DNA from: Armatimonadota bacterium
GTDB lineage: Bacteria; Armatimonadota; HRBIN16
DNA: 64,000 nucleotides
Assembly: GCA_963677485.1 (NCBI GenBank)
Contig: OY781964.1
Coordinates: forward strand, 2,816,001-2,880,000
Reading direction: 5' to 3'
Shown piece after piece: positions 14,798 to 39,179 of the stretch; the first letter of the stretch is position 1; every line of letters begins with the position of its first letter. The translations under genes were made by a program, and so were the position numbers. Below the pieces are notes generated by a model. The model worked only from the letters and a program-made list of their open reading frames with translations. It did no database searches and was not told the DNA's origin.

Positions 14798-16369
14798 CTA
14801 TTGGGTAGTAATGACTGCGGTGACAGACATCCCGGCATGTAGGCGGTCAATGCCCCGTTGGTCTGGAGTGATCGTGAGTTTTACCGGGATACGCTGCACT
14901 ACTTTTGTGAAGTTCCCAGATGCATTATCTGGTGGGAGCAGGGCGAATGTCGCACCGGTTCCAGAAGCGATGCTATTGACAGTGGCCGCAAAGGACTGCC
15001 CTGCCAGGCTGTCGACTTTGATTTCTGCACTCTGACCAGGCCTGAGTTTTGCCATCTGCGTCTCTTTGAAGTTTGCGACCACCCAGATGTTTTGCGACGG
15101 TGGGGGCACAATCGCCATCAACGGCATACCGGGTTGGACGAGTACGCCTTCATTTACGCTGCGCTTGCTGACAATACCCGCAACAGGTGCCGTAATTCGG
15201 GTGTAGGACAATCGGAGTTTAGCGTCGGCGAGTGCCGCCCGTGCCTGACTAACCCTGGCACTTGCTTGATGTGCTGCGGCTTGGCTCATCGCCACCTGTT
15301 TTGGAGCCGTTTGTGCCTGTGTCAGCATCGCGAGGGCCTGTGTGTGACGCGCTCTTGAAATCAGCACCGCACTCCCAGATGAGACTAACTGAGCCCTTGC
15401 CTGTGTCACGCCAGCCAGCGCGGCATTATGCAGCTCCTGAGCCGCGGCATACTGAGCCTGTGCCTGATTGATGGTGGCATTCGCTGAAATAGTCTGCTCT
15501 TTGGCGGCACGCAGATCGGCCTTTTTCGCGTTAAGTGAGGACTTAGTTGAACCCAAATGCTGCTGCGCCGTCTGTAGCTGTGACTTCGCAATCTGCTCAC
15601 CGACGGCGGCTTGTTCCGCCACCTGGGTTCCAATCACATTATCGGATAGAAGTTTTTTGTATCTTGCGTTGTCGTTGACGGCTTTAGTATAGACCGCTTC
15701 TGCTGTTTCCAATGCGGCAGTTGCTGAGTTAACGTCGGTCTCTGCGGTTTCTACTTGTGCAGAAGCCGCCTCTATGGCAGCATCAGCGCGCCTTTGCTGA
15801 GCTTGCGCAGAGATGATGGCGGATTTCGCAACGGTGATGTTCGCTTGCACCCCTTTGGCATTAGCCGAGGCTTGCATCACGGAGGCTTCGTTGCGTGCCA
15901 CATCAGCTTCAGAACCGCCGATAGCACTCTCTGCTTGATTGGCCCCTGCTTCCGATTGTTGAATCTGAGCCATGCCGGTATCGTTGGTCAGCCCGACGTT
16001 GACTCCGCTCGCTTGTGCTGCGGCGATAGCCACGTCGAGGTTGGCTTCCGCCTGCTGAACTGATGTTTTATATGTGGAATCATCTAGCACTGCGATCAAC
16101 TGTCCTGCTTGAACATGCTGGTTATCTGTCATGTAGACCCGTTTCACTGTTCCGCTTACCTGGGGAGCGATAGTGATGATGTCAGCGGTCAGATAGGCGT
16201 CATCAGTGGAGGCATGCGCTGAGGAATACCTCCAGTAGTTCGTCCCACCGACAATGACGGCTATGGTGATTGCTACAACCGCGATCTTACCCAGCAAGTT
16301 TGCGGTCGTTTTGTTTTTTTGCATTACGTGATGATCGGGTTTCATATCAGATGGTTCTGATGCGCTCAT
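14798..16369 (-). CDS. HlyD/EmrA family membrane fusion protein with long coiled coil
   Basis: STDDAY, APQVSG, ITAPVAG, WVVANFKETQ, FALLPPDNASGNFTKVVQRIPV. Confidence 0.93.
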   Translation of the reverse strand: MSASEPSDMKPDHHVMQKNKTTANLLGKIAVVAITIAVIVGGTNYWRYSSAHASTDDAYLTADIITIAPQVSGTVKRVYMTDNQHVQAGQLIAVLDDSTYKTSVQQAEANLDVAIAAAQASGVNVGLTNDTGMAQIQQSEAGANQAESAIGGSEADVARNEASVMQASANAKGVQANITVAKSAIISAQAQQRRADAAIEAASAQVETAETDVNSATAALETAEAVYTKAVNDNARYKKLLSDNVIGTQVAEQAAVGEQIAKSQLQTAQQHLGSTKSSLNAKKADLRAAKEQTISANATINQAQAQYAAAQELHNAALAGVTQARAQLVSSGSAVLISRARHTQALAMLTQAQTAPKQVAMSQAAAHQASARVSQARAALADAKLRLSYTRITAPVAGIVSKRSVNEGVLVQPGMPLMAIVPPPSQNIWVVANFKETQMAKLRPGQSAEIKVDSLAGQSFAATVNSIASGTGATFALLPPDNASGNFTKVVQRIPVKLTITPDQRGIDRLHAGMSVTAVITTQ

Positions 16370-16456
16370 GACATCCTCCAGTTAGTTGAAATGGCAGGGG
16401 TGATACCTACCATCGCAGGGATAGTTGGTGATAGACTGATTGATACAGCCATCATG

Positions 16457-16478
16457 ATAGTTAGTGGTCACTAACTAT
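16457..16478. promoter_or_regulatory. Probable TetR operator
   Basis: Perfect palindrome ATAGTTAGTG-GT-CACTAACTAT just downstream of the efflux operon promoter. Confidence 0.8.
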
Positions 16479-16483
16479 ATTTC

Positions 16484-16511
16484 ATAATATACTATTTCTA
16501 TAGTTTGTCAA
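16484..16511 (-). promoter_or_regulatory. sigma70-type promoter of the efflux operon
   Basis: Minus strand TTGACA (16511-16506), 16 bp spacer, TATTAT (16489-16484). Confidence 0.65.
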
Positions 16512-18170
16512 TAGTATCTTACCAACCATATTTTGAACACGGTGTATAGAATATTCTGATATTACGCACCACACAAAGCGTTAGGCACAACGATCTGGCG
16601 AATAGCAAGTGCTGCCATGATGATACGCTTGCCAAGTGCAGTGAGGTAGTATTTGTAGCGTTTACCGCATTTTTTAACGAGCCGGAATACTCGGCATCGC
16701 TTGATGAAGTATGATATCTGAGAGCTGGACATCTGCGGTAAGGCTTTTTGAAGCATACGGTTTGTGATCCCGCTGATGCATCCCTCTCCGCGAGCAAGTG
16801 CAATGAGACATTCCAAATCCTTCTTGAGGAAAAGGTTGAATCCTCGATACGAGCGATGATCACGGGTGGTCGAGGTCGCGATTTTGATGATCTGATGTTC
16901 ACCATCGCTGTTGTCATCAAGGGCGGAAAGAAAGTCAAGATATCTGTTGTTTGCAGATAATAACAGTTCCCTCAATGGAGGAAGGCTGTAGATGGTCTTT
17001 TGCATAGGGGCGTATTTAATCTCAGTCGTCCCATCATGATGTTCTACCTCACGGTAGTGTTTAAATTCAGAGACGTCATTCACAGTCGTCTCGATACGCA
17101 AGATTATCCCTTGCTTGTCATACATTTTGATAGAAGCCCATCCCATGTAGTGTTTGATGCGCGTGCCTTGTATGCGGCGATCGAACTTGTAGTCAGTGCC
17201 GATCTCAGCGAGTGTTCGCCCATCAAGTTTCTTACCAAGAAACATCGCGATAGACTCTGGCGTTACCGTATGTATCGCTGTTTTGACTAGATTATCGTAG
17301 ATGGCTTTGAGGTCTTCGGCGCGTTTGAACACGATGTCTGTAGCATATTCCACCTGCATTAGCGACCAATGATATGAATTGTCAGCAAGCCGTATCACGG
17401 GGCAATACATTCTGGCAAATGCATCCAGCGCATGGTGCAGCTTATCAGCAGGAAAAGCGTCTGCCAGCCTCTGAGCACAGCTAAAGTCGTCGATTTTTAC
17501 AAAGGCGTTGTCCAGTGGAGTGAAAACTACTCCCTCGGATTGAAGGCAATGCGCGAGATAATTGTGTCCATTACAATAGAATTGCAGACGGAAGGGCACC
17601 CAGGTCGGAACTCGTAGATAGCACAGTCCAAACTCTGCATCGATGAAATAGAAGTAGTAATGAAGACACTTGGTCTCCTTGATATTCAGCCGGGTTTTGT
17701 GGGTAATCTTGTCGTGCCACGGGGTGTATGCAGGACATTTTTCCAACACTGAGAATATGTGGACGAGACCGGGGTGACACCCTCGACTACTAATGATCTC
17801 TTTGATGCGGTCTTCTTTTCGAAATGAAGAGGCACGGCGTATATACTCAATTTCAATGCTGTTGGTAACGGCAAGGCGTTCCGCATTGGCTTTGATCTCA
17901 TCTCGTAGAGGTTCGGCAAATTCCTTAGGAAAGTCAAATAGCCTGATGTTGCGTTGATGAAGATAGATGCCCATTCCGTCGCTATGACACCAGCCTGGGA
18001 TTGTACCGGTGATAACTATGCGGTCGAAGCATGAATATACCCCAGCTATCTGCTTTGCATAGCGTTCTTGAAGTGATGTCATTCTGGGCAACCTCACGAA
18101 AGGGTGTTTGAATGTATATTACGTGGCGAATGCAATCATTCCTTTTTTGGTTGCGGCTAAGCCGCCTTAG
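16512..18170 (-). mobile_element. Putative TIR-less insertion element (candidate rolling-circle type)
   Basis: Single ORF splitting a tetR/efflux divergon. Terminal hairpin GCGGC-TAA-GCCGC (18153-18165). TAG at both inferred junctions (16512-14, 18168-70). No TIR or TSD seen. Boundaries are approximate. Confidence 0.6.
16562..18097 (-). CDS. Putative transposase with Rep_trans-like motifs and C-terminal wHTH (often mis-annotated as a MarR regulator)
   Basis: 511 aa; QVEYATD, IKMYDK, LRIETTVN in the order of the Rep_trans RxDxAxD / YxK / RxE motifs; wHTH-like C-terminus ...YKYYLTALG. Confidence 0.7.
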   Translation of the reverse strand: MRLPRMTSLQERYAKQIAGVYSCFDRIVITGTIPGWCHSDGMGIYLHQRNIRLFDFPKEFAEPLRDEIKANAERLAVTNSIEIEYIRRASSFRKEDRIKEIISSRGCHPGLVHIFSVLEKCPAYTPWHDKITHKTRLNIKETKCLHYYFYFIDAEFGLCYLRVPTWVPFRLQFYCNGHNYLAHCLQSEGVVFTPLDNAFVKIDDFSCAQRLADAFPADKLHHALDAFARMYCPVIRLADNSYHWSLMQVEYATDIVFKRAEDLKAIYDNLVKTAIHTVTPESIAMFLGKKLDGRTLAEIGTDYKFDRRIQGTRIKHYMGWASIKMYDKQGIILRIETTVNDVSEFKHYREVEHHDGTTEIKYAPMQKTIYSLPPLRELLLSANNRYLDFLSALDDNSDGEHQIIKIATSTTRDHRSYRGFNLFLKKDLECLIALARGEGCISGITNRMLQKALPQMSSSQISYFIKRCRVFRLVKKCGKRYKYYLTALGKRIIMAALAIRQIVVPNALCGA

Positions 18171-18276
18171 GACTAGCAGAAATGAGCTCATGAAATGGTA
18201 TGAGCAAACTGCAGTAGGTAGCTGACAGGCAGAATGAAGTAAAATGGGGTGGGCAGGAATACACATGGAGATTTGC

Positions 18277-18855
18277 ATGAACGCATATGATAAGTCGGAG
18301 ATGACGCATTCGGATCAAACAAGAGAGCGGCTGCTCACATCAGGGCTGAACCTGCTGGCAGTGAAGGGATACCGCGGTGCTGTCACCCGCGAGATCGCTG
18401 CAGGAGCAGGCGTCACTGAAATGACGTTATATCGCCATTTTCGGTCAAAAGACGAACTTTTCGCCGCCGCCATTGATGTTAATGGCAAACGGATGTTGTC
18501 ACTCATTCCAGAACCGAGCGGTGACATCACAGCCGATCTGGTGCTACTCTCTGCGAACTTGGCCAAACAGATTCACGCCGTTTTAATGCAACTTATTCAA
18601 ATCGTACCGGAATTACGGCAACACGATGAGTTAAAAGAACAGGTCAATAAGGCGAAGCACGAGTTCCGGACCAAACTGATAACACTCTTGAGCTATTACA
18701 CCAATGGTAACGCGCCTAGCACCTCGGATACGATGCGGTTCTACATGTTTATTGGACCCATACTGCTGCACTTGCTGGACAGTGATGATTCTGAGTTTGT
18801 GTTTGACTGCGAACAACACGTTAAATTGTTCCTGGAAGGTATCTCCGTCGCCTAG
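18277..18855 (+). CDS. TetR/AcrR family transcriptional regulator
   Basis: TRERLL...KGYRGAVTREIAAGAGVTEMTLYRHFRSKDELF HTH; GGAG RBS before ATG 18277. Confidence 0.93.
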   Translation: MNAYDKSEMTHSDQTRERLLTSGLNLLAVKGYRGAVTREIAAGAGVTEMTLYRHFRSKDELFAAAIDVNGKRMLSLIPEPSGDITADLVLLSANLAKQIHAVLMQLIQIVPELRQHDELKEQVNKAKHEFRTKLITLLSYYTNGNAPSTSDTMRFYMFIGPILLHLLDSDDSEFVFDCEQHVKLFLEGISVA

Positions 18856-38437: not shown

Positions 38438-39179
38438 GTGCGCCTGCAAGCGTACGCGAACAAAGAGGTGCAATTCCTCTTCGAGGCCACGCCAACTCTG
38501 GCCTTGTAGTCGGCAGTAACTGCGTCACCGCGAGGTGGGGTGGAGAGCAACTGTTGGCGAGTGACCAGTCCGTAGGATAACGAACCCGTTTCGGCCGCGT
38601 AGAACCAACGAGCCAGCGTAGGAATGGTGAAGTTTGTGCTGTGAAAACAGTGCCTGTTATGCTTGAGAGTGAGCGTATAGAGCAGTGATGGGGGTTGCGA
38701 GGTGCTTGGGGATGGAATGGTCACAAGAGGTCGCGTAAGAGAAGCAGGGAGATCTGCCTGCAGTAGTGGCGATAATAAGTTCGTTGCAGGCAGAAGTCAG
38801 AGCGCCCATAGTAGCGTTGAAGCGTCTGTAATGGATGTGGAGCCAAGGGAGCGCAGGAAGGTAGATCCGTGAAGTCTCAGCCACCGAATATAGCTCCGCG
38901 CGAGAAGTGCCTAAAAAAAGGCTAAACAAGCGGAAACAACTAGCAGGCGACTGCTCAGCCATCGGTGGACTGGACAAATCGGATGTTGGTGCCCCATCAT
39001 ATGGGGGCAAAGAAGGCTGTCGCCTTCAATGCTGAGTATAGGTGTTTACACTACAAACATCCTGTGCAAAGAATCACCAATCCTCAAATGAGGTAACACT
39101 ACCAACTGGAGAGCCGTGTGCGGGAGAACCGCACGCACGGTTCGGAGGGAGGGGGAACGAAAGTTCTCCCTACCCCTAT
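38438..39179 (+). mobile_element. ORF-less group II intron (probably bacterial class E-like)
   Basis: 5' GTGCG; domain V GAGCCGTGTGCGGGAGAACCGCACGCACGGTTC (39111-43, AGC triad); domain VI ending CCCTACCCCTAT; 742 nt with no RT ORF. Confidence 0.93.

Follow-up and report, generated by a model that had tools for sequence, protein, structure and literature searches.

A widespread one-gene insertion sequence with a predicted TBP-fold, Rep_trans-like transposase in an Armatimonadota genome

What kind of enzyme moves a 1.66-kb unit that carries a single gene and has no inverted repeats joining its ends? The question is raised by a 64,000-nucleotide (nt) stretch of an Armatimonadota bacterium genome (GenBank assembly GCA_963677485.1, contig OY781964.1, positions 2,816,001 to 2,880,000), which we call the window and whose positions are used here unless genome positions are named. 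A first-pass annotation made from the letters of the window had proposed a rolling-circle transposon with a Rep_trans-like enzyme. We find that window positions 16512-18171 are a genuine, active-looking insertion sequence of an unnamed and very widespread family, and one that almost certainly encodes its own transposase. The explanation that we favor overall, with reasonable but not strong confidence, is an insertion sequence with a Rep_trans-like tyrosine transposase that moves by a single-strand or rolling-circle type of route; this judgment weighs element, enzyme, and route together, with the route counted as inferred.

All 22 genomic copies of the element have exactly the same span of 1660 bp. 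DNA identity was at least 99.88% for 21 of the copies and 99.2% for the remaining one, and the flanks were unrelated among copies. The 5.22-Mb genome has 22 genes for the transposase protein, of which 21 encode it in identical form and one at 99% identity. Further, contigs from other sequencing runs, three metagenome runs among them, break at 16512 and 18171, and in the contigs of another run the depth was ∼264 inside the element and 13 to 15 in its flanks. The boundaries drawn at first pass were right to within one base. That annotation had also reported that terminal inverted repeats and a target site duplication were both absent. The first part holds: because no inverted repeat links the two ends (the 25 longest of 34 inverted pairs were internal or flank-internal), the element does not have the terminal inverted repeats of the DDE type. 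The second part needs qualifying, since the trinucleotide TAG, which the annotation had itself placed at both junctions, is indeed found at 16512-16514 and 18168-18170.

Two of the insertions sit in sequence that is repeated elsewhere in the genome; uninterrupted versions of these sites therefore exist for comparison, and three such paralogues were available. The copy at genome positions 824,515-826,173 lies in a copy of a group II intron, and two other copies of the intron read flank-TAGG-flank at that place. For the copy at 2,411,325, a diverged paralogue also reads flank-TAGG-flank. Filled sites read flank-TAG...(element)...TAGG-flank, and the empty form predicted at first pass for the window locus (flank-TAG joined to G-flank) is the one seen at these two other sites. 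Because the empty paralogues read flank-TAGG-flank, we take TAGG (CCTA in gene orientation) to belong to the target, which leaves 1656 bp as the net insertion. We also examined the open reading frames (ORFs) flanking each copy, for which the chance expectation is one third per frame class. Frames of at least 70 codons on both sides were present at 12 of the 22 copies, and the number of extra bases (modulo 3) for the best pair was 1 in eight copies, 0 in three, and 2 in one; with frames of at least 120 codons on both sides, it was 1 in 6 of 7. One extra base is what a retained TAGG predicts, and the frame test thus agrees with the paralogue comparison. Of the 22 copies, 18 had T directly before TAG and 4 had A, so that the target is CCTA(A/T) in gene orientation; the next base outward was never C. 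The TAG found at each junction might also be a 3-bp duplication or the core of a recombination reaction, and the sequence does not show where within these three identical nucleotides the cut falls. A search for an empty allele of the window locus in related genomes returned short matches only, with 0 of 40 relatives carrying the locus at the DNA level. As for the introns, Rfam placed a group II intron domain V/VI (RF00029, 58.7 bits) at window positions 39109-39179. Genome positions 109.4-109.9 kb and 824.4-826.5 kb also carry this repeated intron, and the nested element lies ∼140 nt before the 3' end of the intron copy that contains it.

The minus-strand frame reported at first pass, 511 amino acids (aa) long from a GTG codon (16562-18097) and containing QVEYATD, IKMYDK, and LRIETTVN, is present as described. 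The likely start is the ATG at 18082, which gives a protein of 506 aa, identical to the database protein P0002, whose numbering we follow. Searches with this sequence pointed to no known family. No Pfam family matched at an E value of up to 10, the only NCBIfam row was at chance level and belonged to an unrelated heme-degrading family (E value, 0.11; 12 bits against a cutoff of 311), PDB sequence searches gave chance matches and a weak MarR match only, and no usable match was found among the named clusters of the ESM Atlas.

The predicted model of the whole protein had a mean pLDDT of 93.7 and a pTM of 0.81, and that of residues 1-390 alone had a pLDDT of 90.9 and a pTM of 0.89. Two domains cover the whole chain. 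The N-terminal domain (residues 1-390) is TBP-like, with a strand-helix-four-strands-helix pattern that occurs twice, and residues 391-506 form a MarR-like winged helix, in agreement with the C-terminal winged helix-turn-helix already noted at first pass; this second domain probably binds the element ends. In Foldseek searches of the PDB, the whole model matched 4cij (RepSTK1) first (E value, 4.5e-4; probability, 0.93-0.97), and the domain had 4cij and 4cwe (RepDE) among its top rows (probability, 0.85-0.98). Taken together, the best PDB probabilities were 0.85-0.97 for RepSTK1 and 0.89-0.98 for RepDE. A library of viral structures gave virus TBPs, one "REP" protein of Inoviridae, and A0A345MNV4 (E value, 6.3e-4; probability, 0.99). 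In the available portion of PMC13107129, A0A345MNV4 is an inovirus initiator with a PF02486 domain, and Rep_trans enzymes are said there to have the TBP fold. Rep_trans initiators were the sole enzymatic relatives among the top fold matches, and no RNase H-fold chain was among the matches listed. Absence from such a list would not by itself speak against an RNase H fold, but the two confidently modelled domains account for the whole chain, and the predicted fold appears to be a TBP-like two-module sheet and not RNase H. The fold comparison suggested at first pass came out on the side of Rep_trans. A dimer prediction with two copies of the catalytic domain scored 0.00 and bears on neither side.

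We aligned 65 homologues (28 to 54% identity; the domain-only model was made from 46 sequences). D20, E245, K319, Y321, R329, and E331 were invariant in 65/65, and D249 and K323 were kept in at least 90%. Strand labels S1 to S5 were assigned by hand from the secondary-structure string and the strand description of Carr et al. (PMC4797284). With these labels, D20 lies on model strand 12-27 (S1 of module 1), E245 and D249 on strand 238-252 (S1 of module 2), K319-x-Y321-x-K323 on strand 316-323 (S4 of module 2), and R329-x-E331 on strand 327-334 (S5 of module 2). For RepD, the accessible text of Carr et al. gives D46, D142, and E214 as metal ligands and Y191 as the nucleophile, together with R189 and K193, and places the conserved motif residues on strands 6, 9, 10, and 11 (PMC4797284). 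The order of Rep_trans motifs, as set out in the part of PMC5714925 at hand, is N' (D), I (RxD), II (T/SxY/ExG), III (YxKxxE), and IV (W/LxRxE). Among nine Rep_trans proteins from plasmids and genomes, our alignment showed R140, D142, G180, R189, Y191, R212, and E214 to be invariant.

In the model, the order of the transposase residues and their placement on strands match Rep_trans motifs N', I, III, and IV. The three motifs named at first pass, which proved invariant or nearly so in the 65 homologues, take the hand-assigned places of motifs I, III, and IV. The acidic residues D20, E245, and E331 lie on three strands in the same order as D46, D142, and E214 of RepD, a correspondence of strand order and not of three-dimensional geometry. 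Two Rep_trans traits are present in the model: a TBP-like sheet of two five-strand modules and a tyrosine on a strand within R/K-x-Y-x-K (K319-M-Y321-D-K323). We consider it likely that the enzyme is a Rep_trans-like tyrosine nuclease. The first-pass proposal of a Rep_trans-type enzyme therefore stands as to predicted fold and motif order, but the protein is not a sequence-level member of Pfam Rep_trans; because it fails the Rep_trans sequence test, we file it as a new family within the Rep_trans/TBP-fold nuclease superfamily.

The three invariant acidic residues could also be those of a metal-dependent hydrolytic transposase with an unusual fold, in which D20, E245, and E331 would act in DDE-like fashion, staggered cuts would leave a true 3-bp CTA duplication, and the tyrosine would be structural. 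The TAG/CTA repeat at the junctions can be read in just this way. However, such an enzyme would have no terminal inverted repeats for symmetric end recognition, the two ends being unlike and only one of them bearing a hairpin, and target preference by itself would have to account for the C ahead of CTA and the W that follows. Moreover, the K-x-Y-x-K tyrosine is invariant in 65/65 homologues, and the two modelled domains fill the chain and leave no room for an RNase H domain. We regard a hydrolytic transposase as improbable.

The hairpin GCGGC-TAA-GCCGC and the adjoining TTGGTT are where the first-pass annotation had placed them (Table 1), and the hairpin is conserved upstream of homologues, with compensatory changes in its stem. 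Related loci were sought in one genome per species with a profile of 11 closer sequences; 497 of 590 candidate stretches encoded a relative, and 80 loci were kept. A perfect 4- to 6-bp hairpin directly before AACCA, after CC[T/C]AA[C/G], and no more than 220 nt upstream of the gene was present in 62 of the 80 loci. A looser pattern with no pairing requirement was present in 69; it occurs in 27 distinct versions, 23 of which have all four outer positions paired. Several of the 11 loci that miss the looser pattern are cut by a contig end, and six short contigs start exactly at CCTAAC. Across 51 distinct rows, stem pair 1 was CG in 45, GC in 4, and UA in 2, and stem pair 2 was CG in 47 and UA in 4, with no one-sided change; when the partner was slid by 1 to 3 columns, stem pairing fell from 93% to 4-38%. 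These 51 rows were picked for a perfect stem, and the absence of one-sided changes is thus partly built in; the count of 27 versions from the looser pattern is less biased.

AACCA was invariant in 51/51 aligned related ends. On the gene-sense strand, the third loop base was A in at least 90% of the 51, and the closing pair was C-G or A.G. This loop A and closing pair presumably recall the stable GNA triloop mini-hairpins of DNA, and there is a hint here that the sense strand is the one that folds. At the far end, [T/A]AAG-N3-4-CTA[A/T] was found in ∼27 of 47 loci by a heuristic scan read by eye, the form in this element being GGTAAGATACTA, and short contigs of relatives end in ...CTAA. In gene orientation, the family signature read from these sequences is CCTAA-(C/G)-hairpin-AACCAA ... 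GTAAG-NNN-CTA(A). Rfam gave no match at an E value of up to 1 in 16300-18400 and none inside the element. At a circle junction, the AACCA that follows the hairpin could pair with a TGGTT close to the far end; since AACCA is invariant, covariation carries no information on this possible pairing.

By analogy with Rep_trans, Tyr321 of the K-x-Y-x-K motif would cut one strand and stay on the 5' phosphate, with a metal ion held by D20, E245 (or D249), and E331. The cut sites would be CTA^A-like, namely, CCTA^AG-hairpin-AACCAA at the gene-proximal end, 2 nt before the GC hairpin, and GTAAGATACTA^A/T at the far end. Cutting and rejoining at both sites, with or without strand-displacement synthesis from the flank, would yield a single-strand circle joined as ...ACTA-AGG..., and this circle would insert when the enzyme acts in the same way on its junction and on a target CCTA^(A/T). 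Such an insertion would leave CTA at both junctions and would not need inverted repeats. A rolling-circle-type nuclease as transposase fits because the ends are asymmetric, inverted repeats are lacking, and the hairpin lies 2 nt from one junction; it also fits because the words at the cuts are similar (CCTA^A and ACTA^A/T), the target matches them, and the active site is Rep_trans-like. What the data show is that the element is mobile, together with its boundaries, target, end motifs, predicted fold, and conserved residues. The tyrosine chemistry, the strand used, the circle, and the fate of the donor copy are what we infer by this analogy, and we put the chances of a single-strand or rolling-circle route at about even.

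The same element and enzyme might instead work by conservative site-specific recombination of double-stranded DNA within the shared 3-nt CTA core. The tyrosine enzyme would then be topoisomerase- or recombinase-like and would cross the circle junction (ACTA-AGG) with the target (CCTA-W), with no rolling-circle or single-strand intermediate. The presence of CTA at both junctions and once in the empty site is what a crossover core would look like, and the replication-strand bias, which is not significant (see below), is also compatible with such a reaction. On the other hand, double-strand exchange needs paired cuts on both strands, which Rep_trans-type enzymes are not known to make, and for a recombinase, a core of 3 nt and a target of 5 nt would be very short. 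A folded single strand is further suggested by the GC hairpin, which is conserved and keeps its loop A on one strand. Double-strand recombination thus appears unlikely to us.

Several results weigh against a Rep_trans-like enzyme that acts on single strands. PF02486 had 0 matches in the whole genome despite the 22 element copies. When the full alignment was compared by hhalign with the nine-sequence Rep_trans alignment, the probability was 0.4%, and it was 0.1% against RepC alone. With the second module only, IKMYDK aligned with IRIYNK of RepC and LRIETT aligned with WRVEIE, weakly so (P, 0.004; probability, 8%). Rep_trans motif II (T/SxY/ExG) and the Arg of motif I were not evident: on the strand that is the counterpart of motif II (G306-T-R-I-K-H) only G306 is nearly invariant, and motif I reads Q-V-E, not R-x-D. 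The equivalence of residues rests on strand and motif order, without residue-level superposition, and the Foldseek TM-scores were low (0.17-0.36). The hairpin alone was thermodynamically unremarkable (z, -0.5 and -1.6), and the contigs (not raw reads) of runs X3, X6, X7, and X8 held no excision or circle joint across 15900-18800. Finally, a comparison of element orientation with local GC skew gave 13, 14, and 15 of the 22 copies with flanks of 25, 50, and 100 kb (P, 0.52, 0.29, and 0.13, respectively). IS608 shows a lagging-strand bias, and since these counts are not significant, a clear bias of that kind is absent here. Among relatives, five complete genomes had from 1 to 3 full-length matches apiece, too few for a strand-bias count.

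The cumulative GC skew of the genome follows an irregular course: it is lowest at 2.16 Mb, highest at 4.76 Mb, and flat over 1.06-1.58 Mb. The dnaA gene lies at 1.204 Mb. The replication origin is uncertain because these positions disagree, and the skew together with the position of dnaA suggests large genome rearrangements. Two copies of the element lie in the same orientation 4.7 kb apart (genome positions 3,219,951 and 3,224,646), and two copies in opposite orientations flank the contig start (392 and 5,217,906); such paired copies are possible composite units or inversion substrates.

The family is large. In a word-indexed search, 7998 of 8000 candidates matched at an E value of 0.001 or better, most of them on contigs of 1.6-2.5 kb. 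An exhaustive search of 50%-identity representatives gave 6552 matches at an E value of 0.001, 3173 at 1e-10, and 658 at 1e-30; the weakest of all these matches may cover only the winged helix. The 80 loci described above came from Chloroflexota, Acidobacteriota, Desulfobacterota, Planctomycetota, Nitrospirota, Gammaproteobacteria, Bacteroidota, Bacillota, Actinomycetota, Armatimonadota, and Spirochaetota, as well as from one genome of the Parcubacteria group and one of Bathyarchaeia. Several genomes of relatives hold 2 to 4 copies with unrelated flanks. The first-pass annotation had named single-copy, syntenic homologues as the finding that would speak against it; the homologues are instead multi-copy and nonsyntenic in many phyla.

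The source names of the homologues were only "hypothetical protein" or "MarR family" or "ArsR family" regulator and never transposase. These names and the C-terminal winged helix could be taken to mean that the ORF encodes only a DNA-binding regulator of the MarR/ArsR kind, or the initiator of a small integrated replicon, and that the 1.66-kb unit is moved by an enzyme encoded elsewhere. But the winged helix is only the last ∼115 residues of the protein, and the unit has no second gene. In unrelated phyla and one archaeon, this gene is found again between these ends as a multi-copy unit of 1.6-1.75 kb, which makes a shared helper enzyme unlikely. As for a replicon, 0 matches were found among 50,697 phage records, and the 15 matches among plasmid records were all on large replicons (56 kb to 1.95 Mb). 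We therefore give very little credence to movement by an enzyme encoded elsewhere.

The archaeal copy (Candidatus Bathycorpusculum) is 53% identical and has the ends CCTAAC, hairpin TCGGC/GCCGA, AACCAA, ... GTAAGATACTAA; to judge from these shared ends, it points to transfer between domains. Many metagenome contigs break at the 1.6-1.7-kb unit. Element variants with 3 to 8 differences were present in metagenome runs X6, X7, and X8, one of which is labelled wastewater, and one X6 contig extends past the element into sequence that is nearly the same as the flank of the copy at genome position 2,650,754. The T run between the hairpin and the gene start (window position 18143) is one base shorter in three contigs of run X3, and the same shorter run occurs in the element variants of runs X6 and X7.

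How does the element compare with known systems? IS200/IS605 elements (HUH Y1 enzymes, "peel and paste") have no inverted repeats, make no ordinary duplication, carry a subterminal hairpin, and insert beside a short specific target word that resembles their own cut site. The element resembles them in all of these traits and differs from them in an unrelated enzyme fold without an HUH motif, a hairpin at one end only, a protein of 506 aa versus ∼150 aa, and no clear strand bias in its 22 copies. Helitrons have a hairpin a few bases from one end. The element shares with them and with IS91/ISCR (HUH Y2) distinct "ori" and "ter" ends, the lack of inverted repeats, and a short target word beside one end (for the IS91 model, the available text of PMC5714925), whereas its enzyme belongs to another superfamily, has one invariant motif tyrosine and not a Y2 pair, and has no helicase domain. 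With regard to HUH enzymes in general, we found neither an HUH metal motif with Y1 or Y2 nor a Y1_Tnp or Y2_Tnp profile; the protein matched no Pfam family, and its catalytic candidates lie on strands of the TBP-like sheet. The marks of IS110 were likewise lacking, with no Pfam match to DEDD_Tnp_IS110 or Transposase_20 and no structured noncoding RNA matched by Rfam in 16300-18400.

In predicted fold and motif pattern, the transposase comes nearest to Rep_trans and to the recently described Rep-Arvir family. Rep_trans (PF02486) includes RepC/RepD of pT181/pC221, RepSTK1, inovirus initiators, and the MOB_T relaxases of ICESt3, Tn916, and ICEBs1. The transposase appears to share with these proteins a catalytic domain built as a TBP-like sheet of two modules, in which the conserved D, E/D, K/R-x-Y-x-K, and R-x-E follow one another on beta strands as they do in Rep_trans. 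Both also appear to have a helix-turn-helix part for DNA binding behind the catalytic domain and a GC hairpin next to the presumed cut. The transposase differs in that no sequence homology is detectable, the catalytic domain has ∼390 residues versus ∼200-240, the presumed cut lies outside the hairpin and not in its loop, and the setting is a chromosomal multi-copy insertion sequence and not a plasmid, phage, or conjugative element. Plasmids, phages, and conjugative elements are the only hosts of Rep_trans given in the available parts of PMC4797284, PMC13107129, and PMC5714925. Rep-Arvir (DUF7845), from archaeal viruses and plasmids, is presented in the accessible sections of PMC13107129 as a distant TBP-fold relative of Rep_trans found by structure and not by sequence. 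As far as those sections go, it also has a catalytic domain followed by a MarR-like winged helix and an adjacent hairpin origin, and its structure searches match the same viral entries as ours, A0A2N9QVX7 and A0A345MNV4 (PMC13107129). In contrast to the transposable element studied here, Rep-Arvir replicates viruses and plasmids, and the context of its tyrosine is KHYYM and not KMYDK. The transposase matched no family in the searched copy of Pfam, which may or may not include DUF7845, and the two proteins are alike in predicted architecture.

Among Creative Commons-licensed PMC papers and bioRxiv preprints, we found none that describes an insertion sequence or transposon whose transposase is Rep_trans-like or has the TBP fold; ISfinder and TnCentral were not covered, so an earlier naming is possible. 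On balance, we lean slightly toward regarding the element as the first recognized example of a new class of prokaryotic transposons, with a TBP-fold, Rep_trans-like tyrosine nuclease as transposase. Insertion sequences are classed by the chemistry of their transposases, and the list of enzyme types has so far been short and stable. If this reading is right, a further type would be added to the DDE, DEDD, HUH, serine, and tyrosine-recombinase enzymes, and the Rep_trans superfamily would have a transposon branch parallel to IS91, IS200, and Helitrons for HUH enzymes. The second, non-HUH family of rolling-circle nucleases would then also have given rise to transposons, and new annotations would be due for thousands of genes that are at present called "hypothetical" or "MarR/ArsR regulator". 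For mechanistic work, the element would also be a compact system, with one protein, a 5-nt target, and simple DNA signals.

Table 1. Parts of the insertion sequence in window coordinates, with the evidence for each
Feature	Position	Strand	Evidence or remark
Whole repeated unit	16512..18171	minus (gene strand)	22 copies and contig ends; net insertion 1656 bp if TAGG is the target
Gene-distal copy of the 3-nt repeat/core TAG (CTA in gene orientation), the other copy being at the opposite junction	16512..16514	.	Empty versus filled paralogous sites
Gene-distal terminal motif GGTAAGATACTA (gene orientation); family form GTAAG-N3-CTA(A)	16512..16523	minus	Related loci, by eye
Transposase gene, 506 aa plus stop	16562..18082	minus	Database protein P0002, 506 aa, 100% identical
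Predicted C-terminal winged helix-turn-helix, residues ∼391-506	16565..16912	minus	
Predicted catalytic domain, residues 1-390, two five-strand TBP-like modules	16913..18082	minus	Models, fold matches, invariant columns
Codon of Tyr321 (in IKMYDK), proposed nucleophile	17120..17122	minus	Invariant 65/65; strand 316-323
AACCAA in gene orientation (TTGGTT on plus), directly after the hairpin	18147..18152	minus	AACCA in 51/51 aligned related ends
Subterminal hairpin GCGGC-TAA-GCCGC, 5-bp GC stem, 3-nt loop	18153..18165	.	Proposed nick site 2-5 nt outside
Gene-proximal terminus CTTAGG (CCTAAG in gene orientation), holding the second TAG and the target G	18166..18171	.	Copies and empty sites

Beyond the element, the neighboring genes on the minus strand encode an OEP (outer-membrane efflux protein), an MFS pump, and an HlyD-type adaptor, and a TetR-family gene lies on the plus strand. 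The element sits between the TetR-type repressor gene and the efflux operon and thus splits a regulator/efflux divergon, as had been described at first pass for tetR/emrAB-tolC; the operon is probably controlled by that repressor. Between the efflux and TetR genes, at 16457-16478 and 34 nt from the left end of the element, there is an inverted repeat whose two 10-bp arms match perfectly across a 2-nt spacer (ATAGTTAGTG GT CACTAACTAT); this repeat is probably the TetR operator. The element now puts 1.66 kb between this repeat and tetR. Elsewhere in the genome, nine identical frames of 262 aa (for instance, at 830,584 and at 2,759,634, the latter just upstream of the window) had a weak match to Bac_DnaA (42.5 bits) and look like IstB-type ATPases of an IS21-family element in nine copies.

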